Shown: positions 3,049 to 39,938, counted from the first letter of the stretch. The stretch: DNA of 64,000 bases from Sulfolobales archaeon (GCA_038841535.1 JAWBTQ010000001.1:96001-160000); one strand, 5' to 3'. A program made the numbers and translations. Notes: a model not told the origin generated them from the letters alone.

Positions 3049-3052
3049 TTAC

Positions 3053-22873: not shown

Positions 22874-23084
22874 GTGATGAGTGTAGCGCCTTTGCTGGTT
22901 CGGGGCGGCACCGACAGCCAACACCAGAGCTGCTCAGAGGATGAATAAGGAGATTTAGATGTGGGCCCCGCCCCGTTGTGCTCGAAGAGGGGTCGTGACT
23001 CTCGCACATAATGGCTTGTAGCCACGATGAGCTGCTGACAAAATCCCAACTGACCCAGAAAACCTAGAGAAACCTTGGGGTCGG
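22874..23084 (+). mobile_element. Non-autonomous IS607/TnpB-derived mini-element with omegaRNA-like scaffold (type A, copy 1)
   Basis: Shares GTGATGAGxGTAG, TAGATGTGxGCCCCG..CCGTTGxGCTCGAA, TGGCTxGTAGCCACGxTGA and GAAAACCTAxAGAAACCT with the 32.5 kb element. Confidence 0.7.
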
Positions 23085-23201
23085 TAGCCCTGCGGTAACC
23101 TGGCTCTACCTTCAGCATCCCCTAGTTTTGCATAGAGTCTCTCTAAAGTTTCACGAAAGTTCGTATATACTATTTAGGTAGATACTAACCGAGGTGTAAC
23201 T

Positions 23202-23729
23202 GTGAACAAGGGAACTGTTACACTAGTTTCAGCAGTCGCTCTAGCTTTAGCGGCTCTGCTAGCTACGGGTGCTGTACTGGCTTACGCCAAAAGTGCGAAC
23301 GAAAGATGGATGCTCGGAGGACCTGCCGCAGGCATGTTAAACTGGATTGGTCAGCAGACAAACTGTAACTTAACTAATAAACCAGCAAACCTTCTCAGAA
23401 TGAGGCTGCTCTACGAGAAAATGAGGTTCGCAAAAAGTCTTGGACCACGAGTCGAGATGAGTGAGGAATATAGGGAAAAGGTCCTCAGGATAACTACAGA
23501 GGATGCTGATGTAGCTAAACTCCTAGAGAATGGCTATAACATAACAAGTATAAAACCTATCATTAAGGCGTATGTAGAAGCAGACGGATCAGTTAGTCTT
23601 AGAGCTGACGAGGCTCTAGTTATATTGCGCAAAGAGAAGAGTATCGCGGCAGTTTTAGTGAATCTAAAGGAGGAAAAAGTAGCTAAGATAGCGATCTACT
23701 CCTTTTCGGTAACCGTAATAGAGAAGTAG
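23202..23729 (+). CDS. Hypothetical exported protein
   Basis: N-terminal signal-like hydrophobic stretch ending AYA; followed by a T-rich tract. Confidence 0.7.
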   Translation: MNKGTVTLVSAVALALAALLATGAVLAYAKSANERWMLGGPAAGMLNWIGQQTNCNLTNKPANLLRMRLLYEKMRFAKSLGPRVEMSEEYREKVLRITTEDADVAKLLENGYNITSIKPIIKAYVEADGSVSLRADEALVILRKEKSIAAVLVNLKEEKVAKIAIYSFSVTVIEK

Positions 23730-23865
23730 ATTAAGGTATTAGCCAACCGAACAGTACAATGTTATTTTTATCTTTAATGGATTCTTCTGCTTTATTCTCT
23801 TACCCACTCACGTTCTCGTTTTACTGTATTTAGTATATTATACCTTATACATACCGTATTGTGGT

Positions 23866-24762
23866 ATGTATGTAGTTAGACCCTTCGATCCCTGGCGGTC
23901 TCCCCTGTGTACCTGCCCTGCTAAGTACGTGCTTCATCCTTACACGGGGTGTGGACATAGGTGCTTATACTGCTATGCTAGTAGCTACATACGCGACTTC
24001 TTTAATCCGAGGCCTAAGAAGGGCTTAGGAAGTAAGCTGGTCAGAGACCTCGAAATACTTTCTTCAGGTAGTGTAATCGAAGTATCTACGAGTAGCGACC
24101 CCTATACACCACCGGAGGAAAACCTACTACTTACTCGGGAAGCCATCTTGGAGATATTAAAGCGGGGCTACAGATTGCTTATAACGACTAAGAGCACTCT
24201 GATTCTTAGAGACCTCGACCTCTTAGCAAAGTATAGAGATAGAGTAGCTGTAGCTATCACTATTACCACTTTAGACAGTAAAATTGCCGCAGTTCTAGAG
24301 CCGGGCGCCCCCGAAGTATCAGAAAGACTTAAGGTAGTGAAACTGCTGAGTAAGTCTGAAATACCAACACTCGTTAGAGTGGACCCGATAGTACCCTACA
24401 TTAACGACGATTTCTCGGAAATAGCCAAGTTGGTGGATCATGTAGCTAGTGCTGGCGCTATTCAAGTCACTAGCTCAACCTATAAGGCTAGGCCGGATAG
24501 CCTGAGAAGACTGCTAAAGGCTTTTCCAGAGATTTCTTCACTATTGTTAGAGTCCTATAGGGCTGGTGAGAAAGTGGCGGGATACAGGTATCTGAAGAGA
24601 GAAGTTCGCCGCGAGTACATGAAGAGCGTGAGAGATGCTGCCGTAAGAGCTGGTTTAGCGTTTAATACGTGTAGAGAGGGATTTCATGAGCTAGCCTCGA
24701 AGGGCTTTAGTTGCGATGGCTCCTCACTCATAGGTAGATATCGGTCAGCCGTTAAGGCCTAG
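23866..24762 (+). CDS. Radical SAM protein (SplB-like paralog)
   Basis: RPFDPWRSPLCTCP, HPYTGCGHRCLYCYA, SDPY, TKS, LEPGAP, CREG, CDGS. Confidence 0.88.
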   Translation: MYVVRPFDPWRSPLCTCPAKYVLHPYTGCGHRCLYCYASSYIRDFFNPRPKKGLGSKLVRDLEILSSGSVIEVSTSSDPYTPPEENLLLTREAILEILKRGYRLLITTKSTLILRDLDLLAKYRDRVAVAITITTLDSKIAAVLEPGAPEVSERLKVVKLLSKSEIPTLVRVDPIVPYINDDFSEIAKLVDHVASAGAIQVTSSTYKARPDSLRRLLKAFPEISSLLLESYRAGEKVAGYRYLKREVRREYMKSVRDAAVRAGLAFNTCREGFHELASKGFSCDGSSLIGRYRSAVKA

Positions 24763-25248
24763 TGCCACTCTGTACTCTTTGCTTAGAGTTTCCAGCTTCT
24801 TCAGTATGCCTGGGTCTCTCTCTATAATCTCACTCACTAGACTGAGGTACCTCGCGGCTCTCACCGCATCAGGAGATACTCTAACGAGCTCTTTCCCATT
24901 TACAACCACGAAGTGCTCTTTACTTAATCTTTCACCCAGTATGTATTCTGATTCATTAGCACTCGCATGCAATGTGAAGCAGTGAGGACTTCCGTCTATA
25001 GTAACTATGGTAATCCTCCTCGGCCGTGACGACCTGATAATACTCGCTATCTTACCGTAGTGAGTCGGATTCTCGCGCTCAGGACAGGCAAGCAGTACTG
25101 TTTTTCCTTGTGAAAGCTGCTTGAATAACTCCGGGTTAACTACAGGTAGGCACGCTGAAACTATTAAGATATCTGAGTTCGCCAACACTGGTGCTTTAAC
25201 CCACGTACTCCACAACCAAGAACAAGAACCGCACTCCATTTTTACCAC
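24745..25248 (-). CDS. Cys-containing putative Fe-S protein coupled to thiC
   Basis: CGSC, VSAC, LLACPE and GSPHC motifs; start overlaps the thiC stop. Confidence 0.65.
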
Positions 25249-26582
25249 ACCAAGCTACCACCTTCTCCATATCTCTCCAGTAACTCATCTGTCTTCAGCT
25301 CTCTTCCACTTACGTACTTCGATAACAAGAGAAACACGCAGTACTGACCACACATAGTGCATGAACCCAAATCCTGCTGAAACTGCGTCTTCAGTTTCGC
25401 AGCCCTCTCCGGGTCGTAGGATCTCGACAACTGGTAGTCCCAGTCTAGAGAAGCTCTCCTTATGCTCATTTCAATGTCTTCGTAGGCTACCTTCCTACCT
25501 AACTTTACTAGGTCACCGGCGTGAGCAGCTATTTTAGCTGCTATCAGACCCTCTTTCACTTGCTCTACTCCGGGTAGCCCTAGGTGCTCTGATGGTGTGA
25601 GGTAGCATATGAGGTCCGCACCTGCGGCTGCCGCTATAGCGGCTCCTATGGCTGAGGCTATGTGGTCGTACCCTACTGCAACATCTGTGACTAGTGGACC
25701 GAGTACGTAGTAGGGTACACCACCACTGAGGGACTTCATCAGCCTCACATCTGCGACTACTTTGTCTAAGGTCATGTGCCCTGGTCCCTCTATCATTACC
25801 TGGACCCCCCTACTTACCGCATCTCTAGCTAGCCTAGAGTTGTTCAATAGCTCCCCGATCTGTAGCTCGTCGTGAGCGTCAGCTGTAGCACCAGGCCTCA
25901 AAGCGTCACCTAGGCTTATCACGGCATCGTACTCTCTAAATAGCTCTACCAGGTAATCCCAGTGCTTTAAGTACGGGTTTTCCTCGCTGTTCTCTATCAT
26001 CCAAACGGCTATCATGCTCCCACCTCTACTGACTATCGGAGCGACTCTGCGGCTCTTTACAGACTTTCTAGCTAAGTCTAGAGTAATTCCAGCATGTATT
26101 GTCATGAAGTCTACTCCGTCCTTTAGGTGCTTCTCTACAACCGATAGAAACCACTCCGAAGGTATGCCGACACCTCCATACTTTCTAATACCTTCAATCC
26201 AAGCTTGATATGTAGGCACCGTACCGAACGGTACTCCTTCAGAAGCTCCTAGTAGCCTTGCTCTAATCTCGTCTAGGTTACCACCAGTACTTAAGTCCAT
26301 TAGTGTATCTGCTCCAAGCTTTACTGCCGTCTTAACCTTCTCGACCTCTAAGTCGACGTTGACTATCGTGCCACTCGTTCCAACGTTTACGTTTACTTTA
26401 GTCCTCAATCCCTCCCCTACTGCTGCGGGTCTCACTTTAGGTCTTCTGCTGTTTCTTACGATAATTACTCTACCTAGACCTACCCTCTTCTTAAGGGTCT
26501 CATAGTCTATGCCCTCAGATTTCGCTATACCGACTAGCTCGCTTATACTGTTACTGTTTCTAGCTTCAGTTATTATACCCAA
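25242..26582 (-). CDS. thiC: Phosphomethylpyrimidine synthase ThiC
   Basis: [55 protein letters not shown]. Confidence 0.96.
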
Positions 26583-26705
26583 CGGTCTCGACCGTGATAA
26601 GTTCTTGGGCTACCTTATATATGACCTGGTTCTAGAGCATTTAAAACCGAGTTATAGACGTGATGCCGATGCTGCGAAACGTAACTTATTTAGCTGTATG
26701 GAATA

Positions 26706-27653
26706 GTGCATTCTTTGGGACGCAGGTTGCTGCCAGGACTCGAGAAATACCTAAGCGATGAGCGCTCTGGCTACGCTATGCTAGTCGCAGGTCCTCAGTA
26801 CCCACACACTTGCTCCTCATTCGAGTATCCAGCTAGGTACACTATGTCTATCAAGGAGAACTCCGACACATCTCTACTATTCGTAGTCCTTAGGGGAAGA
26901 GATAGAGTTGAAGACATTAACTGGAGGGTTTATGTCAATGAAGTAAAAGTATCTAGAGTGTTCAAACCGCAACACTCCCTCGAGATACGAGGCGACCTGT
27001 ACTACGTATACGTTGCCGACGTTTCACCAATCACTAAGAGCACCAATACTGTTGAGCTCTTAGTAAAGTGCCACGCTAGAGACGTGCGCATAGAGTCGAC
27101 GGGTCTAGTGGCTCTCCTTCCTGGGGAGCTTCAAAGTAGGGTTGGTGTTTACGTAGGCGTCTCTAGAATCGAAAAAGAGTACAGCCTCTACGTTGGTGAG
27201 TACGGCTTCTCTGTTGTCAGTATAGTTGGTCGCGGAAACGGTGGGACTATTACTAGTAATGGTATGTCGAAAAAAGTCAACAACTCATTTGAGATTTCAG
27301 AGCTACTCTCCAACAACAGAATAGACATTGCAGGACCAGTAAACGTGTATGCTATGGTTGTAAACGCTTATGCTGGTAAACCACCAGATATTTCCATACC
27401 CAGTATCATAGTAGAGCCAGAGAAAGTCAAGTTGATACTAACTAACACCGGTGACTACGCAATCAGTAACGTCGAGCTGAAGCTCCTGCGTGGTACGCAA
27501 GCAGTTCAAAGGCTAACTATGAGGAAGATAGGGCCTAGAGAAAGTAGTGAGGTAGAATTAAATAAACCAGCACCTGGGGCTACAGCAATAAAAATAGCAT
27601 ACGAGTTTTCTGGTTACGTCTTCACGCGAGTAATTCAGCTAAGTCAGCCTTGA
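26706..27653 (+). CDS. Hypothetical beta-rich protein with a C-terminal CARDB/Ig-like segment
   Basis: Long ORF; LILTNTGDYAISNVEL...IGPRESSEV resembles an Ig-like strand pattern. Confidence 0.6.
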   Translation: MHSLGRRLLPGLEKYLSDERSGYAMLVAGPQYPHTCSSFEYPARYTMSIKENSDTSLLFVVLRGRDRVEDINWRVYVNEVKVSRVFKPQHSLEIRGDLYYVYVADVSPITKSTNTVELLVKCHARDVRIESTGLVALLPGELQSRVGVYVGVSRIEKEYSLYVGEYGFSVVSIVGRGNGGTITSNGMSKKVNNSFEISELLSNNRIDIAGPVNVYAMVVNAYAGKPPDISIPSIIVEPEKVKLILTNTGDYAISNVELKLLRGTQAVQRLTMRKIGPRESSEVELNKPAPGATAIKIAYEFSGYVFTRVIQLSQP

Positions 27654-27931
27654 AATATTAAGTACACTTCACGAACCTCCTGAGATCCACTCTCACAAGT
27701 ACTGCTGGACTGAAGTGTACATCTGAAGACGCGACGTAATTTAGAAGTACTTACCGCATCTAACTGCTGAACTACTTATGGAGGGCATTTGCTATATTCG
27801 CATGTATTCCTGAGTCCTGATGCTCTCTAGCACCTAGATACCTACTTCGTTCACGTAAATAGTATTCCTGCTATCCATAAGCTAGCAACTATGGTCACTA
27901 ATAGCGGGAACTCTTTGAAGGGGCACGAAAG

Positions 27932-28008
<77 letters not shown>

Positions 28009-28062
28009 CATCTTACACATTTAATATCTTTAGTTTTAAGCTTTAAGTATTGGAGGCCTAGT

Positions 28063-28587
28063 GTGTCTATAAGGGTAGCTTATAGTGCGCTTAGAAGGAA
28101 GAACTCTAAAGAACTAGTCGAGAAATTCTGCGAGTTATATCCTAGAGCCTGCTTGAGTTTGGGGGCAAGTTCTACATCGCTAGTTTACGCAGCTGTATTC
28201 GATGGTGAAGTGATTTACGTAATAGATGGAGTCCCAGCAGCATTTAAGAGTGGGGAAATACTAGCTCCAACACTTGTTTCTGCTAGGATGACTGGAATCG
28301 AGGCATTTCACTACGCTGTCGTAGATGAGGGAGCTGTTAAACCGATACTCAATGGAGCTGACGTCATGGCTCCAGGAATATTGAGAGTAAGTGACTTTAG
28401 TGCTGGTGTTATCGTAGTCGTTTGGTCTAGAGACGAGAAAACACCTCTTGCTGTAACTCAAGCACTTATGGGTTCAAGTGAAGTGGTATCCAAGCGTAGG
28501 GGTAAGGCCTTAAAGAACTTGCACTACGCTGGTGACGGTATATGGAGGGTGTCTCTTGAAGTATTAAAGAAGTTCGGGAAAGTGTGA
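28063..28587 (+). CDS. PUA domain RNA-binding protein (DUF1947/PUA); true start GTG 28063
   Basis: VVDEGAVKPILNGADVMAPGI, GKALKNLHYAGD; the longer ORF overlaps tRNA-Ala. Confidence 0.88.
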   Translation: MSIRVAYSALRRKNSKELVEKFCELYPRACLSLGASSTSLVYAAVFDGEVIYVIDGVPAAFKSGEILAPTLVSARMTGIEAFHYAVVDEGAVKPILNGADVMAPGILRVSDFSAGVIVVVWSRDEKTPLAVTQALMGSSEVVSKRRGKALKNLHYAGDGIWRVSLEVLKKFGKV

Positions 28588-28637
28588 TCTTTGATTAAGG
28601 TTTATAAGCCCTATCATACGAATTTGAAGGGTCTGCT

Positions 28638-28865
28638 ATGAGCGATGCTGCTCAGCGCTTACTAGGTGAGAACTTAGGTCAAGACGTGCTAGTTAAGCTG
28701 AGATCGAGCGAGTTAGTTAGGGGAAAGCTGAAAGGCTTTGACCAACACTTAAATATCGTACTAGAAGATGCCTACGAGCTAGCGGAAAACAAACCAAGAA
28801 GACTGGGTACGGTAGTGATAAGGGGAGAAAACATAGTAATGATATCTCCAGCAACCACTGGGTGA
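28638..28865 (+). CDS. Sm-like archaeal protein SmAP1 (Lsm)
   Basis: [29 protein letters not shown]; upstream of L37e. Confidence 0.95.
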
Positions 28866-28869
28866 GAAC

Positions 28870-29055
28870 GTGAAGGGTACTCCCTCGATGGGCAAGAGAA
28901 GCAAGGGAAAGACTCACATAAGGTGTAGAAGATGTGGAAGACACTCGTATAACGTAGCTAAAGGTTACTGCGCTGCTTGCGGTTTCGGGAGGAGTAGGAG
29001 GCTTAGGAGGTACTCATGGGCCTCTAAGAAAGTAAACAGAGTTAGAGTTAAATAG
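28870..29055 (+). CDS. rpl37e: 50S ribosomal protein L37e
   Basis: [28 protein letters not shown]. Confidence 0.97.
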
Positions 29056-29067
29056 TGGTATATTGAA

Positions 29068-29325
29068 ATGCCCCTCAAAAAGATAGTTCTCGACGTGCTT
29101 AAGACCATAAAAGGCACTTCACTAGTAGAACTTGCTGAAATGATCGTTAGACTAAATGGTGTAAGCAAAATATCAATTAACGTAAGTGAAGTAGACGTAG
29201 AAACCATAACCCTCAACGTCACTATCGAGGGTAACAACATAGACTTTTCTGAAGTAAGAGATATCATAGAGAAAGCTGGAGGCGTCATCCACAGCATAGA
29301 TTACGTTACAGCTGAGAAAGATTAA
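29068..29325 (+). CDS. DUF211 family protein
   Basis: IVLDVLK, EVDVET, IEG..IDF, GGVIHSID. Confidence 0.85.
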   Translation: MPLKKIVLDVLKTIKGTSLVELAEMIVRLNGVSKISINVSEVDVETITLNVTIEGNNIDFSEVRDIIEKAGGVIHSIDYVTAEKD

Positions 29326-29346
29326 GCAAAACTAGTCGACTATAAA

Positions 29347-30486
29347 ATGGTGCTAGGAGAACTAGCTCTAATACTACTCTGTGTCGCACTATCTCACATA
29401 GCCTCTCTACCTCTCCTACTGCTTAAGCTACCTCCAATACCAGCCTACATAGCTGTTGGCATTCTGTTGCGCTCTACTCCTTTCAATATCTCTGGAATAA
29501 TCTGGGAGAACTTGGTCGGCTTCTCGCTAGTTTTCGTGGGTCTCCACGCCGGATTGTCGTCTAAGATCAAGCGAGATAGTATAAAGAGAATTGCGCTAGT
29601 ATCTCTAGTTAATGTCGGTGTTTCCGCAGCAGCTGTTTACATTTTCCTAGCTCTTCTGACAGGTGACTTCATCAAGAGCCTTTTAATGAGTGTACTGCTA
29701 GCTAATACCGCTACCGAGGGGGTACTGAGCTTGTCTAGGTACACTAAGCATAAGAGCGACGCAGAGATCGCTCTAGAAATATCTATCGGAGACGATATCG
29801 CAGTACTCTTGCTTTCCACTGTAGTTCTAGCACTCATAGGTACCCAGCAGACTTACGAGATATTGCTCGCTACCTTAGTTATAGCAGGTGTCACTATATT
29901 CCTCAGCGTGTTTTTAAAGAAGAATGTTGACCGAGCTATACTTAACACTATATCCATAGCAACTCTCTTCATTCTCATCGCTTTAACAGTAGATAATATA
30001 GGGCCACTAGTGGGGGGATACGTAGTTGGTATAGTACTAAGCTCTACGGCATCTTCAGGTGACCCGCTTTTAAAGGTAGCTAGAAACGTTGAAGCCTTAG
30101 TTGACGGACTGGAGCACGTTAACAGCTTAGTGTTTCTACCTCTAGTGTTCACGTATATAGGGCTGGGAGTCAGCATATCTGGGGCTAGCACACAGCTAGT
30201 TTGGTTAGGCTTACTTGGGGCTGTACTCGGAAAACATGCGGCTACCTCAGTATTGAAGAAGATAAATCTCGTGACTCCACTTAGTACTCGCGAAGTTGCG
30301 GCACTAATTACGGTCAGGGGCTCCCTAGAGTCAGCAATAGCTTTAACAGCACTAAAGTCTAAACTATTTACAGCTGAAGAGTTTGCGGCATTAATCATAA
30401 TATCTCTCTTAACTTACCCTATTTCAACAGCACTAGTAGCACTTAGCAGAAGGTCTATCTCGAAAGTGTTGCAAGTACTTACTTAG
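29347..30486 (+). CDS. Cation:proton antiporter (CPA2-like)
   Basis: About 12 transmembrane segments, SIGDD motif, FLPLVFTYIG, VRG. Confidence 0.8.
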   Translation: MVLGELALILLCVALSHIASLPLLLLKLPPIPAYIAVGILLRSTPFNISGIIWENLVGFSLVFVGLHAGLSSKIKRDSIKRIALVSLVNVGVSAAAVYIFLALLTGDFIKSLLMSVLLANTATEGVLSLSRYTKHKSDAEIALEISIGDDIAVLLLSTVVLALIGTQQTYEILLATLVIAGVTIFLSVFLKKNVDRAILNTISIATLFILIALTVDNIGPLVGGYVVGIVLSSTASSGDPLLKVARNVEALVDGLEHVNSLVFLPLVFTYIGLGVSISGASTQLVWLGLLGAVLGKHAATSVLKKINLVTPLSTREVAALITVRGSLESAIALTALKSKLFTAEEFAALIIISLLTYPISTALVALSRRSISKVLQVLT

Positions 30487-32266: not shown

Positions 32267-32478
32267 CTAATGAAGAGCTATCGTTCTATTACCACCTCAT
32301 TACAGTCCTCAAGCTTGCTGCTACGGCTTCGCATTTTAGGGCTTAATTACTTTTTCTGGAGGCAGAATCTTAAACGATGAAATACGCTTATATATGCCCT
32401 CATGTCCCCTACGACGTGTCCTCAGGAATCCGAGCGAACCTGTGTGGTGTTTAAGTGTACTAGAGCTACTAGCCTAGA

Positions 32479-32740
32479 CCGTTTCCCGCCCTAGGTTTCT
32501 GTAGGTTTTCCTAGGGTGGGTTGCGCCTCCTGCTCCACGCTTCACCGTGGCTACCAGCCACTCTACGCAGGTGTCATGGGCACCTTTCGAGCCCAACGGC
32601 ACGGGGCTCACATCTAGCCCGATCCCTGGGTGGCTCGGATCACTACTCTCATCACCACCCAGACTCACCCAAACACCTACACAAACACAAACCCCACAAA
32701 AACCCTTAAAAACTTAACGCATCAAAGCAGTTGTCAACCC
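32479..32740 (-). mobile_element. Apparently complete non-autonomous IS607-like mini-element with omegaRNA-like scaffold (type A, copy 2)
   Basis: TATA-like TTTTTAAG, GT-rich leader, hairpins GAGCCC/GGGCTC and GTGGCT/AGCCAC, AAACCTA repeats, ends GGAAACGG; translates as a TnpB-tail-like DVSPVPLGSKGAHD..EWLVATVKRGA. Confidence 0.75.
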
Positions 32741-32746
32741 TGATAG

Positions 32747-32845
32747 TGCGGGGGGTGGGATTTGAACCCACGCAGGCCTACGCCATCGGGGTTCCCACTC
32801 TAGGTCCTGAGCCCGACCCCTTTGACCTGGCTCGGGCACCCCCGC
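32747..32845 (-). tRNA. tRNA-Leu(CAG) with a 14-nt intron at 37/38 (32792-32805)
   Basis: GCGGGGG acceptor, UCGGG-CU-CAG-G[ACCUAGAGUGGGAA]C-CCCGA, long variable arm; CUCA/UGGG central helix of a BHB motif. Confidence 0.95.
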
Positions 32846-32960
32846 ACCATTAGATGTTAGTTAATGCGGGGTTATAAGTTTCTATTCGGTTGCTCGATGG
32901 ATTGCGGTCTTTAACGAGAGTTATATAAATTAACGAAGGATTATAGTACCAGGGCTCTAA

Positions 32961-34349
32961 ATGAGCTCCAAGAGGCTTTTTGGAACCGATGGAGTTAGAG
33001 GAGTAGTGAATGTCGATCTAACTCCTGAAGTAGTTTTAAGGCTCGCGCTAGCTATTGGAACGTACTTCCGCCCTGGGTCGAGACTAGTTGTCGGTTCAGA
33101 TGTGAGAGCTGGTAACAGCTTTTTAACTAAGATAGTAATCGGTGGCTTAATTTCTACTGGAGTAAAAGTAGTTAACGCTGGTCTAGCACCTACACCAGCT
33201 CTTCAATTCTACGTGAAGTCTAGAGGATTCGATGGCGGTATAGTAGTTACAGCGTCCCACAACCCACCTGAGTACAGTGGCATAAAGGTAGTAATGCCCG
33301 ATGGAGTTGAGGCACCACGCAAGGTTGAGGAAGAACTTGAGGAGATATACTATGAAAACAGATTTAGGAGAGTGCCGTGGCGTGATGTCTCGGGCGATGT
33401 CACGAGAGTTTACGATGTAGTCGATCATTACTTGAATAACATAGTTGAGCTTGTCGATAAAGCGAGAATACGTGAGTCCGGCTTGAAAGTCGTTGTCGAC
33501 CCTGCTAACAACGTGGGGGCTCTAGCTACACCTAAGTTGTTGAGAACTCTAGGAGTTAGAGTAGTCGTTATAAACGGTGACTTAAGCTATACACCTTCTA
33601 GGAGTCCGGAGCCTGCTCCAGAGAACATCGAAGACCTTATTTCCGTAGTTAAGGCTGTCGGCGCTGATCTCGGTGTCGCCCACGATGGTGACGCAGATAG
33701 AGCCATATTCGTTGCTGATGGTGGCCTCTACATACCTGGAGACTTATCGGCATTACTACTATGTAAACACATAGTGGAAAACCGAAGAGAGGTCACGCCC
33801 CCTAGGGTAGTTACTGCGGTTTCTAGCTCTACACTAGTTAGTAAAGCACTATCGGCATACGGGATCGAGGTCGTCTGGACTAAGGTTGGGAGTATAGTCA
33901 TATCGAGAACTATGATGGAGCTTGGAGCTATAGCTGGCTTTGAAGAGAACGGAGGCTTTATGTACCCAAAGCACCAGTACGTGCGGGATGGAGCTATGAG
34001 CCTGGCTTTAATGGTGGAACTACTTAGCTACGAAAAAACCTCTCTATCGAGTTTACTCGAAACACTACCGAGGAGGCACGTGGTTAAGAAGAAGGTGTAC
34101 GTTAACAGGGAGTTATTGCCGAAGGTTTACGAAAAAATAAAAAGTAGGTTTAGTGAGGTAGAGTTTATTGATATAGACGGCCTCAAGGGTATCTCAAGTA
34201 GGTACTGGTTTTTAGTGAGACCAAGCGGTACTGAACCTTTAGTAAGAGTTTTTGTTGAAGCCGATGAAGAACTACTTGTCAACGAGATATTAAAAGAGTT
34301 ACTAGACATTTTTGTAGAGGTGTACGGAAGTGAGGTACGTGTTGCTTAA
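32961..34349 (+). CDS. glmM: Phosphoglucosamine mutase / phosphohexomutase
   Basis: LFGTDGVRG, TASHNP, DGDADR, GFEENGG, RPSGTEP. Confidence 0.9.
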   Translation: MSSKRLFGTDGVRGVVNVDLTPEVVLRLALAIGTYFRPGSRLVVGSDVRAGNSFLTKIVIGGLISTGVKVVNAGLAPTPALQFYVKSRGFDGGIVVTASHNPPEYSGIKVVMPDGVEAPRKVEEELEEIYYENRFRRVPWRDVSGDVTRVYDVVDHYLNNIVELVDKARIRESGLKVVVDPANNVGALATPKLLRTLGVRVVVINGDLSYTPSRSPEPAPENIEDLISVVKAVGADLGVAHDGDADRAIFVADGGLYIPGDLSALLLCKHIVENRREVTPPRVVTAVSSSTLVSKALSAYGIEVVWTKVGSIVISRTMMELGAIAGFEENGGFMYPKHQYVRDGAMSLALMVELLSYEKTSLSSLLETLPRRHVVKKKVYVNRELLPKVYEKIKSRFSEVEFIDIDGLKGISSRYWFLVRPSGTEPLVRVFVEADEELLVNEILKELLDIFVEVYGSEVRVA

Positions 34350-34737
34350 TCTACTCGCTTGCCCTATGTGCAAGAGCTTCCCGCTAAAGTTACTAGTCTT
34401 TGAAGAGGGAGTTATAGATAAGAAGCTCAGTGTTAAAACTCCCTTCTGCGATCTCTACTGCGGGCTGAAGAGTTCTTACTTAAAAGACCTTAAAGTAGAG
34501 GAACTGAACTGCAGTGAGTGCGTTAAACACGATGTTCTCTGGGGTATACTTCACTGCTCTAACTGCGGGAGATGGTATCCCGTGATCGACGGGATACCCT
34601 TTATGTACCCAGACGACTTGAGGGCAAAGCCTAGGATTAAGAGTAAGGAAGAGCAATTTATTAGTAGGTATGCCGATAAGATACCTCTCGAAATAACCGA
34701 AAAAGATCCTCTGAAAATATTAAGGCCTAAAACCTAA
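34330..34737 (+). CDS. Trm112-like protein (zinc-binding, extended)
   Basis: LLACPMCK.FPL and CSNCGRWYPVIDGIP motifs. Confidence 0.85.
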   Translation: MRYVLLNLLACPMCKSFPLKLLVFEEGVIDKKLSVKTPFCDLYCGLKSSYLKDLKVEELNCSECVKHDVLWGILHCSNCGRWYPVIDGIPFMYPDDLRAKPRIKSKEEQFISRYADKIPLEITEKDPLKILRPKT

Positions 34738-35158
34738 ACATAGCTGCTCTAGGAACTCCGTCCACGTAGATTACGCGTATCTTGGTAATTAGCTCAACAC
34801 CTCCTACAACCTCTAACTCTCTCCTCAGGGACTGTAGAGCAGTCAATTTGTTGTTCAAGTTCTCTACAGCAACCTCGAGAGCTGTTTGCTCCTGCTCTGC
34901 CGTAGGATTAAATATGAGTGTTAAGCCTCTGAGGGAGACGGTGTTAGTTACTACTTCAGATTTTACCCCCAGCTTCCCTAAGAGCTCCTTGATCTTCTTT
35001 TCTTGTTCAGCCTTTATTCTCAGCTCTTCGAGTTTCTTTAAAAGATCTCCCATCCTCCTCCTAAGCTCGGCAATATCTTCGTCTATATCCTTAATGAACT
35101 CTGCGACACTATTGAACTCTCTAATCTCTGTAGAGGCGAGGTCTTTATGTGAAGACAT
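34727..35158 (-). CDS. Hypothetical coiled-coil protein
   Basis: Heptad-rich helices flanking a short beta segment; terminal YVDGVP. Confidence 0.7.
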   Translation of the reverse strand: MSSHKDLASTEIREFNSVAEFIKDIDEDIAELRRRMGDLLKKLEELRIKAEQEKKIKELLGKLGVKSEVVTNTVSLRGLTLIFNPTAEQEQTALEVAVENLNNKLTALQSLRRELEVVGGVELITKIRVIYVDGVPRAAMFRF

Positions 35159-35390
35159 AGCTACACCGATATAAGATTAACCCTGAGTATTTATATACAC
35201 TAAATATTGAAGTACTAGGAATAAGACTATTTTCACTTGATTGCGGGACGTGGTCACTCTAGACCTAACTTAAGCTGATATCACCTTCTCGCCGTCATAA
35301 ACAGCTCTAATCCACAGTTAGAGTTAATAACGCATGTGCTAATCTCTCAATGACCTATCACATCGGCTCGCTATTACCGTGGTTTAAAAC

Positions 35391-35747
35391 CTATAAGAGC
35401 TTGAGTTTACCCGTAATTCTGTCCAATAGCTCGCTAGGAGCGGGTCCTAAACCAACAGCAGTTAGAGTTCCGGGGGGTAGCTCTGTGAGGCCTGCGTCGT
35501 GTATTATGGCTGTAGGTATTCCGACTTTTTGTGCTTCAATAGCATACTTTAAGAGCTCTACTTCAGATGAAACCTTTACTACTACTTTCTTCTGTCCTTC
35601 GGTTATCCACTCTTTAAACCAACCTGGGTTACTGCTCATTGCTTCTAGTGCCGCGGCTACCGATGCGTGTGCAACTTGAACTGCTAGCTTTCCCTTACTC
35701 ATCTTCAAGTCTGACCTAACTATAATGACTTGCTTCATTTTGCTCAC
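35391..35747 (-). CDS. pth2: Peptidyl-tRNA hydrolase Pth2
   Basis: KQVIIVRSDLKMSKGKLAVQVAHA, GQKKVVVK, DAGLTELPPGT, GPAP. Confidence 0.96.
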   Translation of the reverse strand: MSKMKQVIIVRSDLKMSKGKLAVQVAHASVAAALEAMSSNPGWFKEWITEGQKKVVVKVSSEVELLKYAIEAQKVGIPTAIIHDAGLTELPPGTLTAVGLGPAPSELLDRITGKLKLL

Positions 35748-36061
35748 TTACTCAGAGCTGCTATTAGTTTATCGACGATGTTTCTGCTGTAGTCAGCTAT
35801 ACACCTATTATGGCAATAGGGGTCTAGCACACCGTTTCTACTGCACTTCTCGCGGCATGCTGCTTCAAACGTGTATGTATCTACTTCAAGAATGAAGAAG
35901 CCAGGGTTTTGCGGGAGACTCCTAACTTTAACTAGAGACCTAAGGTCGCCAATGACCTTTACTATCTCTCTAATAGCCTCCTGTTTGCTTTTGTCGAATA
36001 TGTAGAAACCGTATCTTTTAAGAGCCTCAATAACTTCAGCTCTTACATCTTGAGAGTCCAT
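35744..36061 (-). CDS. Hypothetical protein with four C-terminal Cys
   Basis: C-x3-C...C-x3-C; ATGA overlap with pth2. Confidence 0.65.
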   Translation of the reverse strand: MDSQDVRAEVIEALKRYGFYIFDKSKQEAIREIVKVIGDLRSLVKVRSLPQNPGFFILEVDTYTFEAACREKCSRNGVLDPYCHNRCIADYSRNIVDKLIAALSK

Positions 36062-36455
36062 ACCTCTTCACCGGTAGTTTAAGTAAGTCTACAACGCACT
36101 TAATTATGCTGTAGGCTTGGCTCTGGTCTATATGGCACTCAATTAATCTTATCTTAAGCTTTCTGTAGACAGCTTTAAATACGACAGTACCCGCTGAGCT
36201 GTAGACAGTGACGTCTCCCCTAACTTTCCTTCTCGGATTCCTCCTCACGTCCAAGGCTACGAGGAAGGTCCCGGGAGGTATCTCAACGAGTGCGTCGTAG
36301 GCTTCACCCTTAGCATAAGTAGGTTTAACCCCGGCTTTATCTAATACCCGCGAGGTGACCTTTATACAGTCCTTACTAATAGTGAAGTAAGTAGAGATCC
36401 TCATGTGTAAGCCGCTTCTGCTAACGGACTTCTCGACTCTTACTTTAGTTTCCAA
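36036..36455 (-). CDS. Conserved hypothetical basic protein (start uncertain)
   Basis: VEKSVSRSGLH, PTY.KG, AVYRKLKIR; packed in an operon with pth2. Confidence 0.65.
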   Translation of the reverse strand: METKVRVEKSVSRSGLHMRISTYFTISKDCIKVTSRVLDKAGVKPTYAKGEAYDALVEIPPGTFLVALDVRRNPRRKVRGDVTVYSSAGTVVFKAVYRKLKIRLIECHIDQSQAYSIIKCVVDLLKLPVKRYGLSRCKS

Positions 36456-36696
36456 CGCATCGAACCTCGAGGACGTTGCCTTTCTGCTCGAAACTAATAT
36501 TACCTGAAACCTTAACAACTATAGCTGCCTCAAATTCAGCAAAAGATATATCAGTTGAGCACTCGCTTGCGTACACTCTAACGTGCTTGATCGACTCTGC
36601 GAGTACTTCTCTTTTTAGCATACCTGTATCGTCAAACAGCCGTATTTCGGTGTTCCCCTCTTTACCCATATACAGCACTAACACACTTGAACTCAA
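36445..36696 (-). CDS. Small hypothetical protein
   Basis: Co-oriented and overlapping with the downstream gene; beta-rich sequence. Confidence 0.5.
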   Translation of the reverse strand: MSSSVLVLYMGKEGNTEIRLFDDTGMLKREVLAESIKHVRVYASECSTDISFAEFEAAIVVKVSGNISFEQKGNVLEVRCVGN

Positions 36697-36793
36697 ACAG
36701 TTGCCCCTATCAATTCCTCAGTGCTGATTAAAGCTTTGAGTACAGATAAACTAGAGAAAGCTATTCTTTTACTGTGATTCACCAGCGATCGGA

Positions 36794-37243
36794 GTGATTC
36801 CCGTGGAATCATCCTACCTGTTAGTCTTCAAGATATGCGGCAGACTGAGAGTAGAAATAGCGAGAGATAGCTGGTTTTTAGATGATGGGTACTATGCGTA
36901 CTTAGGCTCAGCCCGCTTAATGAGGCCATACTCTAGAATTCTAAGACACTTCACCCCTGCTAAAAGGATTCGATGGCACATAGATCGGGTAACGTCGAGC
37001 TATAAAACTCGACCGATAGCTGGCATATTACTGTACGGTGTATCCGAAGATTCCCTCTACAATGCGGTCTTCAGCAGCAGAATGTTTGAAGCTACTATCC
37101 CAAAGTTTGGCTCGACTGACAGGAGAAACCACTTCACACATCTCTTTAAAATCTCTTACTTCAGAGTTCCGGACATCTTTAGAGAGATCGCGTCTATAGC
37201 TGAAAACCTAGGAACTTACCTAGTCGAGTTCATATTCACGTAG
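36794..37243 (+). CDS. DUF123 / GIY-YIG (Uri) family putative nuclease
   Basis: SYLL, GYYAYLGSA, RILRH, RWHID, FGSTD, THLF. Confidence 0.85.
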   Translation: MIPVESSYLLVFKICGRLRVEIARDSWFLDDGYYAYLGSARLMRPYSRILRHFTPAKRIRWHIDRVTSSYKTRPIAGILLYGVSEDSLYNAVFSSRMFEATIPKFGSTDRRNHFTHLFKISYFRVPDIFREIASIAENLGTYLVEFIFT

Positions 37244-37426
37244 TCATAATATCTTAAATAAGGTGTTAGGTATCGGTAGACTTATACTGCTCTCCGCTCG
37301 TTTGCGGAGGTCCTGGAGGACGATTGAAGTAGCCTCTATTTAGAGCTCTCCTTTAGGTCTTAGTTACAGATAAGCTTAAAAACCCTACTACGACTTAAGT
37401 ACGCAAAACAGACAGAGTTGGAACGT

Positions 37427-37870
37427 ATGTCGGAGGGTAAGTTAAAGGTATTGGAACTAAAACCGGGAATGGAAAAAGTATCCATTCTCGTAAGAGTAAT
37501 AGATCCAGGAGAAGTGAGGAGAATCACCACAAGAGCTGGAGAGAGAACGATTCGAGAAGCAACTGTTGGCGACGAGAGCGGTAGAGTGAAGCTGGTAATG
37601 TGGGGTAGGTCTATTAAGTCCTTAACTCGTGGAGACGTAGTTGAGGTTTCGGGAGCTTGGACTACAGTATTCAAGGGTAAGGTACAGCTTAATGTTGGTG
37701 GTTCTGAGAACGTTAAGGTCGTTGAAGACTCTGGCGAACTACCTTCAGCCGAAGATATCCCTGAAGAAGAGCCTAAAGCTGAAGGTGAAGTACCTAGGAG
37801 GCCTAGGCATAGAGGCTTTCAGCAGAGGAGGAGTAGGTTCGGTAGAAGTAGAGGCGATGAATTTGAGTGA
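37427..37870 (+). CDS. ssb: Single-stranded DNA-binding protein (crenarchaeal single OB fold)
   Basis: ELKPGME, VGDESGRVKLVMWG, AWTTVFKGKVQLN, Arg/Gly-rich then acidic tail. Confidence 0.92.
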   Translation: MSEGKLKVLELKPGMEKVSILVRVIDPGEVRRITTRAGERTIREATVGDESGRVKLVMWGRSIKSLTRGDVVEVSGAWTTVFKGKVQLNVGGSENVKVVEDSGELPSAEDIPEEEPKAEGEVPRRPRHRGFQQRRSRFGRSRGDEFE

Positions 37871-38201
37871 AGAGCATGAAGCTCCAAAACAGTCAGACTA
37901 TATATCACTATATGATAGCATCGTAGACAGAAAACCCGTAAAGCAGGGTGCTGATGTGGGACTAAGTGGCGAGGAGTATATAGTAAGCCTAGGAGAGGAC
38001 AAAGTCTTTGCTCTAGCTCCAGCAGCTTACTATATATGGAACCTCTGCGATGGATTGAGGTCCGTTGGAGACATACTAGAGAAGGTAAAGTCAGACCTAA
38101 AGGAAAGCGGTGAAGAGGGGCTAGAGGAAGTAGAACTTAAGCAAATACTCGCCATGGTTCTCTCCGAATTAAATAGTGTAGGCTTAATCAGTTGGACGTA
38201 G
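37857..38201 (+). CDS. PqqD/RRE-like small protein (start ATG 37857)
   Basis: VFALAPAAYYIWNLCDGLRSVGDI...LSELNSVGLI matches the PqqD winged-helix pattern. Confidence 0.75.
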   Translation: MNLSEEHEAPKQSDYISLYDSIVDRKPVKQGADVGLSGEEYIVSLGEDKVFALAPAAYYIWNLCDGLRSVGDILEKVKSDLKESGEEGLEEVELKQILAMVLSELNSVGLISWT

Positions 38202-38248
38202 CAAGCAAGATATACTACTTGCTCTAATAGGCTTCTCAATAACGTTTT

Positions 38249-39730
38249 TTAGTCGAACTCTCTTGGCTTAATCATGGGGAAGGGCACTACTTCCTTAATA
38301 GAGTTTACTCCAGTATATACCATCACTAGTCTATCTATACCCAGACCCAGGCCTCCTGTTGGGGGCATTCCGTGCTCTAAGGCTTCTACGAAATCCCAGT
38401 CGAAGGGGTGCGCCTCGAGGTCTCCGAGGCTTCTTCTAACTTCTTCTTCCTTAAAGTAAGACGCCTGTAGCTCCGGATCATTTAGCTCTGTATAAGCATT
38501 TGCTAGCTCCATCCCCCCTATGTATAGCTCAAATCTCTCAGCAAGGTCTTGTCTGTTCCTGTGGGGTTTTGCTAGAGGTGACGACGACCTCGGGAAATCG
38601 GTAACGAACGTTGGCTGTACCAGGTGCTCTCTGCCGACGACGCGGTCGAATAGCTTCACTATAGCTCGTCCTCTATCGTATCCTCCGGTAAGCCTGATCG
38701 AGTACTTCTCTAAATATTCCTTTATTTTTTCGTCAGGTAGTGCCTCTACGTCTACTCCAGTGAACTCTCTAAAAGCATCGTAGATAGTGACTCTCTTAAA
38801 GGGTGGTGAGAGGCTTACCTTAACTAGGTCCTTACCGACAGGATACTCGACTACGTCAGTTCCTAGAACCTTCCTAGCTACAGTAGATACTAACTCCTCA
38901 GTTAGCCTCATGATGTCGTTGTAGTCTGCGTAAGCCTCGTAAGACTCCATCATAGTAAACTCTGGGTTATGCTCGACATCTATGTCTTCGTTTCTAAAGT
39001 TCTTCCCTATCTCGAAGACTTTGTTGAATCCTGCGACAATAAACCTCTTCAGGTATAGCTCGAGACTAATCCTCAAATACCACTCAGTTTCTAGAGCCCA
39101 CACGTAGGTCTTGAAAGGTCTTGCTGCGGCACCACCATATATTGGCTGAAGAATGGGGGTCTCTACCTCTATGTACCCCTTGCTCCACATGAACTTCCTT
39201 ATCTCTTCGATTGTCTTAAAGCGTATCTCGAAGATCCTCCTAACCTGTGGACTCATCATGATATCCAGGTATCTCTTCCTATACCTAACCTCCGGGTCGA
39301 GGACTCTATGGCCCCACTTAACTGGTGGGCTTCTCAAAGCCTTCGCAAGTAACTGCATCTCTCTAACACCTATCGTTAGCTCACCCTTCTTAGTATAGTA
39401 CAGCAAGCCAGTAACGTAAACAAAATCCCCTAAGTTAATGAACTTATCAAAGAACTCGAAGACCTCCTGGCCAGAGTCTCCCCTAGATATAGAGCACTGT
39501 ATTCTATGACCATCGTCTACTAAGTCGAAGAATATCAAACCACCGTGTCTTCTAATCCCAACAACTCTACCAGCTACTCCAACATTGCTACCGAGAGTCG
39601 GTGACTTAACTATGTCTCGCACTGGGGTAGCTCTGCCCTTAAGGGCGTGAGGATATGGGTTTAGACCTAGCTCAATCAACTTTCTCCTAATATCTCTTCT
39701 AGCATCTACTTCACTACTCACTGCGACCAC
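38249..39730 (-). CDS. lysS: Lysine--tRNA ligase, class II
   Basis: RYRKRYLD, GGAAARPF, ELYLKR, FRNE..HNPEFT, ELANAYTELNDP, GMPPTGGLGLGIDRL. Confidence 0.96.
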   Translation of the reverse strand: MVAVSSEVDARRDIRRKLIELGLNPYPHALKGRATPVRDIVKSPTLGSNVGVAGRVVGIRRHGGLIFFDLVDDGHRIQCSISRGDSGQEVFEFFDKFINLGDFVYVTGLLYYTKKGELTIGVREMQLLAKALRSPPVKWGHRVLDPEVRYRKRYLDIMMSPQVRRIFEIRFKTIEEIRKFMWSKGYIEVETPILQPIYGGAAARPFKTYVWALETEWYLRISLELYLKRFIVAGFNKVFEIGKNFRNEDIDVEHNPEFTMMESYEAYADYNDIMRLTEELVSTVARKVLGTDVVEYPVGKDLVKVSLSPPFKRVTIYDAFREFTGVDVEALPDEKIKEYLEKYSIRLTGGYDRGRAIVKLFDRVVGREHLVQPTFVTDFPRSSSPLAKPHRNRQDLAERFELYIGGMELANAYTELNDPELQASYFKEEEVRRSLGDLEAHPFDWDFVEALEHGMPPTGGLGLGIDRLVMVYTGVNSIKEVVPFPMIKPREFD

Positions 39731-39848
39731 CTGAGTTCCTACTACTGCTTAATTTGCACATCAATTTTATGTAAACTGATGCTATTTTATTGCTTCCATA
39801 GCTTCCAATCTTCTTACATCTCCACTATGGTATACCCCCCTACGTAAC

Positions 39849-39938
39849 GGCCTCAACCACATGGCTTACAGTAGCTATCAGCCACCCTAAGTGAAGTTCA
39901 TGAACGCACCTTTAACTTAATGGCTTTGGGTCCACACT
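39849..39938 (-). repeat. Degenerate third copy of the type A omegaRNA-like scaffold
   Basis: Minus strand TGTGGACCC..GCCATT..AAAGGTGC..CATGA..TAGGGTGGCTGATAGCTACTGT aligns with copy 2 TGTGAGCCC..GCCGTT..AAAGGTGC.CATGA..TAGAGTGGCTGGTAGCCACGGT. Confidence 0.65.

Follow-up and report, generated by a model that had tools for sequence, protein, structure and literature searches.

Three related loci in the window

The window, i.e., the whole stretch of 64,000 nt of DNA that was analyzed (positions 96001-160000 of contig C1 of a Sulfolobales archaeon), contains three related loci. An iterated nhmmer family profile located them at 22817-23084 on the plus strand (copy 1; E 4.5e-50), at 32477-32739 on the minus strand (copy 2; E 4.8e-64) and at 39849-39939 on the minus strand (copy 3; E 7.5e-07), and yielded no further family match in the window. 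A covariance model of the family, run across the whole window with filters off, retrieved exactly these loci at 115.5, 156, and 26.7 bits, respectively, with the next best match at 7.6 bits; copies 1 and 2 were part of the training set of this model, copy 3 was not. Both searches thus support the homology of the three loci, as originally predicted. The hairpin on which that prediction drew is present as TGGCTTGTAGCCA in copy 1 (23012-23024, +), as GTGGCTGGTAGCCAC in copy 2 (32547-32561, -) and as GTGGCTGATAGCTAC in copy 3 (39871-39885, -), and the second stem reads GGGCCC/GTGCTC in copy 1 and GAGCCC/GGGCTC in copy 2. By homology, all three derive from a TnpB-carrying transposon and are short and gene-less; copies 1 and 2 have kept its ends and its guide-RNA scaffold. 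No tnpB lies in the window, as had been stated: the Pfam TnpB domain matches on the contig (C1:40473-40683 and C1:173485-173670) fall outside it. On the 5′ side, the full elements reach further than had been given, copy 1 spanning 22820 to 23087-23096 and copy 2 32478-32736.

Copy 1 is a complete non-autonomous IS607-derived element of subfamily B (22820-23096, +) with an ambiguous right end (23087, 23091 or 23096). Its alignment with 10 further full copies spans the whole element. In the alignment of family copies, its left end is abutted by AAGGGT (22814-22819, +), a target/TAM-like motif. Within the left end, the AT-rich box ATATTTAT (22840-22847, +) is found at the same place as TTTATAAA upstream of tnpA in an intact element of the same genome (on contig C18, see below) and may represent an archaeal TATA box from the promoter that once served tnpA. 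It is followed by a remnant of the tnpA 5′ region (22874-22940, +), assigned by profile alignment; C18:1983-2108, comprising the left end and the first ~55 nt of tnpA, is placed at the same positions. The omegaRNA-homologous scaffold with helices P1-P5 extends over 22941-23091 (+; model positions 1-153) and includes two subterminal AAACCT repeats. Going by the omegaRNA layout of published IS607 TnpB systems, the 3′ flank (23088-23116, +; start uncertain by 9 nt) would supply the guide. For copy 1, the comparison with other genomes shows only a shorter orthologous intergenic gap, by ~330 bp in G007 and by 262 bp in G002.

Copy 2 (32478-32736, -) is a complete non-autonomous IS607-derived element of 259 bp that belongs to subfamily A. 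An intron-containing tRNA gene (32747-32845, -; Rfam tRNA 46.2 bits), which has a 17-nt insertion in the anticodon loop and was not reported by ARAGORN, is situated 10 nt upstream of its left end. The left flank CAGGGT (32737-32742, -) again constitutes a target/TAM-like motif. Copy 2 is absent from the same-genus genome G007, where the alignment shows a 259-column gap in otherwise collinear flanks and the empty site reads CTAGGGT-CTAGGC (hyphen at the insertion point); this presence/absence polymorphism points to mobility of the element. In comparison with the empty site, the two junctions share only GGT and no target duplication is found. Insertion at GG(T) without duplication is the signature of serine-recombinase IS607 transposition. 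C18:1978-2056, with TTTATAAA ~40 nt before the tnpA start, matches the left end of copy 2 at 78% identity, and by this likeness the AT-rich box AAGTTTTTAAGG (32704-32715, -) is a candidate TATA box that might function as promoter element. A remnant of the tnpA start-codon region (32632-32655, -) then reaches up to the deletion junction.

The omegaRNA-homologous scaffold of copy 2 (32478-32631, -) shows 86% identity across 140 nt to C18:3803-3941 (blastn), i.e., to the last 125 nt of tnpB and the right end of the intact element, with the tnpB stop at 3928 inside that stretch. In line with this, the anticipated TnpB-tail likeness of the translated copy 2 was recovered by HMMER with the C18 TnpB, which matches the copy 2 frame (E 4.1e-18). 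Like the intact element, copy 2 terminates in GGGAAACGGT. The predicted 20-nt guide, CTAGGCTAGTAGCTCTAGTA (32458-32477, -), is found directly after AGGGT in the G007 empty site and may be used as such.

Two sequence blocks had been described as common to copies 1 and 2. The 5′ block is present (GTGATGAGTGTAG from 22874, +, and GTGATGAGAGTAG at 32643-32655, -); it is not part of the RNA scaffold, GTGATGAG being the region around the start codon of tnpA. The 3′ block, AGAAAACCTAGAGAAACCT in copy 1 (23057-23075, +) and GGAAAACCTACAGAAACCT in copy 2, was found as described and corresponds to the paired subterminal AAACCT repeats typical of IS607 ends.

Copy 3 (39849-39939, -; profile positions 143-233) is a degraded internal scaffold relic of the P1 to P4 region without left end, AAACCT repeats or right end. 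Its low score under the covariance model goes along with many non-canonical pairs and a missing P5. It is kept in G002 inside a 1401-bp match at 94% identity and lies at a synteny break relative to G007. The proposal that the cassettes kept ends and scaffold while losing the nuclease ORF therefore applies to copies 1 and 2, which contain neither tnpA nor tnpB, and not to this internal fragment. Likewise, the notion of a separate guide for each locus fails for copy 3, which cannot define one because it has neither end.

An intact parent element in the same genome

Contig C18 of the same genome carries an intact IS607-type element consisting of left end, tnpA, tnpB, and right end. The tnpA gene (2053-2685) encodes HTH_17 (E 7e-14) and Resolvase (E 7.1e-26) domains, as is characteristic of IS607 serine recombinases. 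The accessory tnpB (2657-3928) lies downstream of tnpA and overlaps it by 29 nt, which is likewise an IS607 trait; its product of 423 aa contains a Cas12f1-like TNB domain (E 5.9e-17). Thus, the genome does contain the full-length TnpB homolog that a supply in trans presupposes, and the expected homology of the short copies to an IS607 tnpB 3′ end and right end is given by the match of copy 2. The protein has a RuvC-I D, a RuvC-II E, and a RuvC-III D, at positions which we take to be the catalytic sites. It is the only intact TnpB of matching type in this 84%-complete assembly. Since the C18 scaffold is 86-92% alike to subfamily A and only ~67-71% to copy 1, compatibility of this TnpB with copy 1 is doubtful. 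The same-genus genome G007 also has subfamily A orphans, and no close full-length TnpB was found in its 80%-complete assembly.

Size and build of the family

The count of three loci is correct for the window, whereas 42 matches at E<=1e-5 are present genome-wide in the 1.56-Mb assembly. Full copies amount to four in subfamily A, seven in B, and 14 in C, alongside one intact parent. The short elements are 259-277 bp long and composed of the left end, the first tnpA codons, and the last ~140 bp of the parent element. Copies 1 and 2 thereby resemble MITEs and PATEs in being short, lacking a transposase gene, retaining both parent ends, and occurring in many copies. Terminal inverted repeats and duplications, the classic MITE features, are absent, as expected for IS607. 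Instead, copies 1 and 2 have two AAACCT motifs at a distance of 12-40 nt from the right end, as well as AGGTTT-type motifs in the left end, which at the sequence level fits the subterminal direct repeats of IS607. The position at which the deletion starts on the tnpA side differs between subfamilies A and B. In both, the right-end-derived part begins within ~2 nt of TAGATGTG, and in subfamily C its start coincides with the matching CTAGGTGG or precedes it by a few nt. Family copies are 65-92% similar; with differences of 8-35%, most of them must be old and some, such as copy 3, are decaying.

Structure and distribution of the scaffold

The scaffold is predicted to adopt a conserved five-helix RNA fold and ends in AAACGGT. 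On C18 it extends from 3789 to 3941 and hence runs, as an omegaRNA does, across the tnpB 3′ end (stop at 3928) and the right end of the element. Similarly, it closes an ORF of 411-453 aa in five of 29 other genomes. Copies 1 and 2 differ in helices P2 and P3 by compensatory changes. In a set of 29 sequences from the 29 other genomes, 90.4% of cells were paired (32-44% with slid partners), changes on both sides occurred in 31 of 38 pairs, and the covariation score was 0.563 (0.06-0.09), although these counts lean toward the structure, which was taken from one family member and to whose covariance model the alignments were fitted. Covariation across the fold is thus strong. Thirteen subfamily C orphans, which stood outside model building, were 79.1% paired (27-47% slid) and showed double changes in 14 of 32 pairs (0-6 slid). 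The covariation of the family may nevertheless date back to autonomous ancestors, the short copies having simply inherited it.

The scaffold was found in 73 of 121 sampled genomes of the order. Across the window, none of the Rfam 15 families reached the gathering score for it, and at E<=10 both full loci gave only chance-level matches. Being widespread in the order and not represented in Rfam, the scaffold family is missed by current genome annotation.

Flanking sequences and predicted guides

Among 12 family copies, the C18 element included, the left end is preceded by AGGGT in nine and by a flank with GGT as its last bases in 11. As described for copy 2, AGGGT also directly precedes the guide-matching sequence in the G007 empty site. 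Judged by these flanks, AGGG(T) is a candidate TAM for the family. At the right end, most copies of the own genome terminate in AACGG, as do 23 of 29 foreign ones. By construction, the 3′ flank of an element is also its guide. Such a predicted guide would therefore most likely target the empty site of the same element and not a free repertoire of other sequences; for the copy 2 guide, the sole target seen was its own empty site in the relative G007. In two RNA runs, only ~4% of sampled words were present, and no transcript of the loci emerged from them.

Origin and possible function of the gene-less elements

Copies 1 and 2 are thus internally deleted, MITE/PATE-like derivatives of an IS607 element and copy 3 is a decayed fragment of one. 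We consider this origin, together with use of TnpA and TnpB in trans as the proposed mode of action, to be probable at roughly three in four. TnpA supplied in trans would move the elements. The retained tnpA promoter, i.e., the AT-rich left-end box, would transcribe through the scaffold into the 3′ flank, and the resulting RNA would be an omegaRNA with this flank as guide. TnpB in trans might then load this transcript and cleave the empty insertion site of the element, where AGGGT precedes the flank, while the occupied site, with ACGGT before the same flank, would be spared. According to the published homing/retention model, cutting of the empty site would favor restoration of the element by recombination after excision.

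A further-reaching version, which we put forward tentatively, describes the elements as double parasites that borrow TnpA for moving and TnpB for retention, and which selection has trimmed to the tnpA promoter and a complete omegaRNA. If true, the nearly identical start of the right-end-derived part would show where an archaeal IS607 omegaRNA of ~140 nt naturally begins, and ~25 promoter-driven guides would share one TnpB in competition, encoded by the single intact gene, an arrangement recurring across the order.

Less probably, the copies are inert relics, mobilized by TnpA now or once and decaying neutrally with a functionless scaffold. Retention of the right ~140 bp would then reflect only a cis requirement of the recombinase for the end, or chance placement of the deletion. 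The plain decay of copy 3, the 65-92% similarity among copies, which argues against recent origin, the single intact cognate TnpB, and a covariation that is inheritable from autonomous ancestors would all be compatible with this. However, the retained right part (~140 bp) is about twice the span of the TnpA-binding repeats, which have been placed ~20-60 bp from the terminus by measurements on the left end of IS1535 (Chen et al., 2018, eLife, PMC6188088). Moreover, the start of this part is nearly the same in three subfamilies although the tnpA-side junctions of A and B differ, and the orphan-only subfamily C keeps 79% of its pairs, with double changes in 14 of 32.

The dispersed guide repertoire of the original prediction, in which a trans-acting TnpB or a nuclease-dead relative would be aimed beyond the insertion sites for defense or gene regulation, appears improbable. 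It would account for ~25 full orphan copies next to one intact element. Nevertheless, none of 27 extracted 20-nt flanks had a second near-full match in the genome (best 16 of 18, about chance level), and two 20-mers, namely the predicted guide of copy 2 and the flank of copy 1 starting from the candidate end at 23096, both lacked an exact match in the viral collection searched. Orientation toward the next gene was unbiased, with 10 co-oriented and 12 convergent cases among the 22 of 27 examined right ends that had a crude gene call within 500 nt. Furthermore, the guide of copy 2 has its match beside AGGGT in the empty site of this copy, and all three residues are present at the presumed catalytic positions of the intact TnpB. 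That the loci form a structured small-RNA family or small protein genes unconnected with transposition is very improbable, since the conserved, covarying fold, the GTGATGA of the 5′ block, which may resemble a C box, and the ORFs overlapping copy 2 (64 aa) and copy 1 (83 aa) are set against sequence continuity with the tnpB 3′ end and both IS607 ends, the insertion of copy 2 relative to G007, the lack of an Rfam match even at E<=10, the opposite strands of the two ORFs relative to the element, indels between copies that are not multiples of three, and the lack of a Pfam match in the copy 2 ORF.

Comparison with known systems

Trans-acting standalone omegaRNAs are already published, and the internally deleted IS607 derivatives described here therefore refine known biology and do not change it. 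Such loci, mobilized without effector and transposase and with a stated function in trans together with compatible effectors (Altae-Tran et al., 2021; summarized in PNAS 2023, PMC10691335), share a genome with effector-bearing loci, as is the case here. The cases as described in that summary are not archaeal IS607 derivatives, and the present elements additionally keep the tnpA promoter region and start codon. What is provided here is a clean gene-less IS607 derivative from a hot-spring archaeon, dated by comparison, with a full omegaRNA scaffold and an exact empty site. Were the orphans expressed, they would delimit a minimal scaffold of ~140 nt for a thermophilic TnpB, with AGGG(T) as its likely TAM, and would be a case of non-autonomous elements profiting from both nuclease and transposase.

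PATE-like IS200/IS605 elements of Geobacillus stearothermophilus are minimal, have conserved ends and no genes, and often encode omegaRNAs that need TnpB from elsewhere (Meers et al., 10.1101/2023.03.14.532601). As described there, they depend on a Y1 (HUH) transposase, single-stranded hairpin ends, and a TTGAT-type TAM, whereas the elements of the thermophilic archaeon are of serine-recombinase origin, insert at GG, and have no hairpin ends.

The flanks and right ends found here mirror the IS607 TnpB-omegaRNA system of Clostridium botulinum, with TAM TGGG and right end TCGG (Zedaveinyte et al., 10.1101/2023.11.20.567912). Like the C18 parent type, it has a serine-recombinase tnpA, a tnpB, and a GG core target, and a G-rich TAM or TAM-like motif differing at one position from the scaffold end recurs, TGGG/TCGG there and AGGG(T)/ACGG(T) here. 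The C. botulinum elements carry a group I intron and genes; by contrast, the window elements are archaeal and gene-less and have a scaffold without Rfam match.

For the IS607 family in general, GG at termini and target, the lack of terminal inverted repeats and target duplication, and short directly repeated subterminal motifs in the ends have been described (Chen et al., 2018, PMC6188088). These features recur here, with AAACCT twice in the right end of copies 1 and 2 and insertion of copy 2 at GG without duplication; the window copies differ by lacking both genes.

Homology of the Three Loci

The window corresponds to C1:96001-160000 of an assembly that comprises 1.56 Mb in 40 contigs and is 84% complete; the closest counterparts of the proteins encoded in the window are in MAGs of hot-spring Thermoproteota that carry the label Sulfolobales or Desulfurococcaceae. 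Three intergenic loci had been proposed to be homologous, orphan omegaRNA-like cassettes without a tnpB gene, and each motif quoted in this original prediction was found in the sequence at the position assigned to it. With nine copies from the genome as input and one iteration, an nhmmer profile matched copy 2 (32477-32739, minus strand; E 4.8e-64), copy 1 (22817-23084, plus strand; E 4.5e-50) and copy 3 (39849-39939, minus strand; E 7.5e-07), and no other locus across the window. A covariance model covering only the 3′ part, with copies 1 and 2 included in the training set and copy 3 not, was applied to the complete 64 kb with filtering disabled. This model, suggested earlier as a check, recovered all three loci at 156 (copy 2), 115.5 (copy 1) and 26.7 bits (copy 3), the next best match in the window scoring 7.6 bits. 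The E-values and model scores establish that the homology is real and that copy 3 is a weak, partial family member. Copies 1 and 2 align over approximately 260 nt, while copy 3 is alignable only in its central part and possesses neither the left end nor the AAACCT repeats nor the right end; the proposed homology extends no further for this locus. The relic at copy 3 is kept in the same-genus genome G002, with a synteny break beside it relative to G007, a second genome of the genus. No family match was found at the copy 3 region of G007. The feature as such is real and the core of its identification was right.

Origin From an IS607 Element

A genome search with copy 2 yielded 29 matches, two of them directly at tnpB 3′ ends. 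An intact tnpB was also present in the genome, on contig C18, as part of an intact element. Its 210-aa ORF with HTH_17 and Resolvase domains is an IS607-type serine recombinase TnpA, and the TnpB of 423 aa, the gene of which overlaps tnpA by 29 nt, shows a weak match to RuvC in addition to a Cas12f1-like TNB domain. When seven TnpB sequences are aligned, the D residues of GVDVN and HDRDV in the C18 protein are invariant and the E of VVLEKL is common to six of the sequences; we take these residues to be the three RuvC catalytic positions. This alignment was too diverged to use for finding named TnpB relatives, and a scan of the genome contigs for which the C18 TnpB was the query confirmed none.

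Copy 2 is 78% identical to C18:1978-2056, which runs through the left end as far as the start of tnpA, and 86% to C18:3803-3941, which covers the last 125 nt of tnpB and 13 nt past its stop codon. The resemblance of its translation to a TnpB tail, pointed out in the original prediction, was borne out: used as a HMMER query, the C18 TnpB matched this frame with an E-value of 4.1e-18. Furthermore, the profile aligns the first approximately 55 nt of tnpA with the middle of the short elements. From these two separate matches and the profile alignment, copies 1 and 2 are internal-deletion derivatives consisting of the left end, a tnpA stub and the right approximately 140 bp. This structure accounts for both blocks previously noted as shared by the two copies: the 5′ block, GTGATGAG, corresponds to the region of the tnpA start codon, and the 3′ block is a pair of AAACCT repeats. 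The latter resembles the subterminal direct repeats of IS607, which are bound by TnpA according to PMC6188088.

Within the genome the family amounts to 42 profile matches at E<=1e-5. Full gene-less copies form three subfamilies, namely A with four copies, including copy 2, and the right end ...GGGAAACGGT; B with seven, including copy 1, most of which end in ...GGGAACAGT, the end of copy 1 being uncertain; and C with 14, none of them in the window, and the right end ...GGGACAAACGGT. Apart from the single intact IS607, located on C18, the genome has a frameshifted copy (C1:40254-41463, minus strand) and one further full-length TnpB with an unrelated 3′ end (C19). Subfamily C copies are approximately 300 bp long (e.g., C10:42938-43244, C7:883-1226 and C5:65610-65916); they have the left end and the first scaffold hairpin (P1) in common with copies 1 and 2 and a 3′ half of their own ending in GGGACAAACGGT. 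The only tnpB-linked copy of this subfamily in the genome lies beside a 159-aa tnpB fragment (C9:40579-41058), and in other genomes its right-end type closes full-length tnpB ORFs. A lone right-end/scaffold copy (C1:41842-41992, plus strand) lies inverted approximately 400 bp past the left side of the frameshifted IS607. The IS607 TnpA has only one other match (E 3.8e-36), an 821-aa frame open to the contig end (C14:32887-35354, plus strand) that perhaps encodes a large serine recombinase belonging to a different mobile element.

Insertion Sites and Boundaries

At the copy 2 locus both sides are collinear in G007 and exactly 259 bp are absent, which sets the limits of copy 2 at 32478-32736 (minus strand). 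In element orientation, the empty site of G007 reads ...CACTACTAGGGT|CTAGGCTAGTAGCTC..., and the occupied site reads ...CAGGGT, followed by the element (TGACAACTG...GGGAAACGGT) and then CTAGGCTAG... GGT is the sole sequence shared by the junctions, and there is no duplication. This matches the signature described for IS607 in PMC6188088, in which exchange takes place at a GG core and the target is not duplicated. The intergenic gap at copy 1 is shorter by approximately 330 bp in G007 and by 262 bp in G002; an exact empty site could not be placed in either genome, as the intergenic spacer is too diverged. The family alignment places the start of copy 1 at 22820 and its end at 23087, 23091 or 23096.

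In G002, the flanks of the copy 2 site lie approximately 13 kb apart on opposite strands (C4 near 233466; C4:246497-247212). The tRNA-side flank breaks exactly after CTAGGGT into unrelated DNA (L064:1490-1510), and at the other flank only the right part of the element is left, a pattern suggestive of a rearrangement at the junction of the insertion. The tRNA gene itself (window 32747-32845, minus strand), past the 3′ end of which copy 2 starts after 10 nt, has a long variable arm, and its anticodon loop carries an insertion of 17 nt; it was missed by ARAGORN and scored 46.2 bits with Rfam. Across the scaffold (window 32468-32635), the depth summed over contig sets of hot-spring metagenomes climbs from approximately 20 to values in the hundreds or thousands, and contigs break at the borders of copy 2, as expected for a multi-copy repeat common to several community members.

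Scaffold Structure and Distribution

Rfam 15 contains no matching family for the scaffold, as searches at gathering thresholds on the window and at E<=10 on both full loci returned only tRNAs and chance-level matches. The default RNAalifold consensus of a 20-copy alignment was poor (-4.2 kcal/mol) and was dropped. Instead, the minimum-energy fold of one subfamily A copy served as the source of a five-helix structure. In it, P1 forms a hairpin, P2 encloses a domain with P3 and P4, the latter being the hairpin recognized in the original prediction, and the terminal hairpin P5 spans the AAACCT repeats and is followed by a short tail, AAACGGT.

Among 20 copies from the same genome, 78.8% of the cells were paired, compared to 33–44% with slid partners, and 21 of 38 pairs had changes on both sides (9–14 slid), bearing in mind that the structure derives from a family member. 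The corresponding values were 90.4% (slid 32–44%) and 31/38 (slid 13–17) for 29 copies from 29 other genomes, and 79.1% (slid 27–47%) and 14/32 (slid 0–6) for 13 subfamily C orphans outside the model, both of these alignments having been fitted to the model. The covariation score of the 29 foreign copies was 0.563, against 0.06–0.09 when partners were slid, and the observed values were not attained in any shuffle; for the subfamily C orphans shuffles gave 8.0 pairs changed on both sides and 0 of 500 reached the observed count, with relatedness inflating these shuffle tests. The fold is thus conserved, and the compensatory changes may be older than the gene loss. The P3-P4 internal loop (GUAGAG ... 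GGUGAA; window 32541-32570, minus strand, and the matching part of copy 1) contains tandem G/A positions, which in our view resemble a kink-turn.

Of the 121 genomes sampled from the order, 73 contain the scaffold according to the covariance model, and they represent 40 of 53 genera. When the best match from each of 29 other genomes was taken, the ORF that terminates within the scaffold measured 411–453 aa in five, 100–190 aa in five (two near a locus edge) and less than 100 aa in 19, sizes indicating that gene-less copies are common well outside this genome.

Possible Function of the Gene-Less Elements

Standalone omegaRNAs, mobilised without effector and transposase and working in trans, are described in PMC10691335, citing a 2021 Science paper, and gene-less PATE-like IS200/IS605 elements "often encode omegaRNAs" needing TnpB in trans, according to Meers et al. 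Archaeal gene-less omegaRNA elements derived from IS607 were not found in the literature searched, including the texts of PMC11061315 and PMC12558985; supplements may hold cases. The window copies are new members of a kind already in print; their ancestry, anatomy and conserved fold and the insertion signature are shown, and all that concerns an RNA function is inferred.

Several features may suit a functional RNA acting with TnpB in trans. The left flank is AGGGT in nine of 12 copies, and 11 of 12 end in GGT; AACGG terminates the scaffold in 23 of the 29 foreign copies and in most copies of the genome itself. This parallels the published IS607 of Clostridium botulinum, where TGGG is recognized by both TnpA and TnpB, the scaffold ends in UCGG, and the occupied site is spared through the single differing position between TGGG and UCGG. 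By analogy, the guide in an RNA made from copy 2 would be CTAGGCTAGTAGCTCTAGTA, for which the sole match found was its own empty site, directly after AGGGT. The intact element carries TTTATAAA approximately 40 nt before the tnpA start; since the left end of the short elements keeps an AT-rich box at the same place, the former tnpA promoter could drive transcription of the scaffold. The TnpA-binding repeats of IS607 span 20–60 bp, as measured on the IS1535 left end (PMC6188088), and the approximately 140 bp kept on the right are about twice this span. The tnpA-side junction differs between subfamilies A and B, yet the right-end-derived part begins within approximately 2 nt of TAGATGTG in both; in subfamily C it begins at the matching CTAGGTGG or a few nt ahead of it. 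The excess over the TnpA-binding span together with this near-constant start suggests that the scaffold is kept for a reason.

Against a functional reading speaks that only one cognate TnpB is intact, albeit in an incomplete assembly, that copy 1 is only approximately 67–71% like the scaffold of this C18 TnpB, that many family copies are old, and that G007 (80% complete) contains subfamily A orphans and no close full-length TnpB. Two of the 22 listed sequencing runs are RNA, each with approximately 0.04 of the sampled words, and the tRNA was covered in two RNA and two DNA runs. Family-like pieces at 88–96% likeness occur in one RNA library; they do not demonstrate transcription from the window loci, and no contig spans the element.

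Nothing points to the further proposal of a scattered guide repertoire aimed at targets other than donor sites, although the negatives are weak: none of 27 flanks tested had a second near-full match in the own genome, the viral collection held no exact match to the copy 2 guide or to one candidate copy 1 guide (its pattern placed the right end at 23096, perhaps incorrectly), and 27 right ends showed no orientation bias to the next gene (10 co-oriented, 12 convergent, five without neighbour; crude ORF calls). A 14-mer of the copy 2 guide (window 32458-32477, minus strand) recurs at 10 other genomic sites with at most one mismatch, compared to approximately 0.5 expected under uniform composition. 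As the flanks of these sites are unrelated, the recurrence probably reflects CTAG-rich or serine-codon composition.
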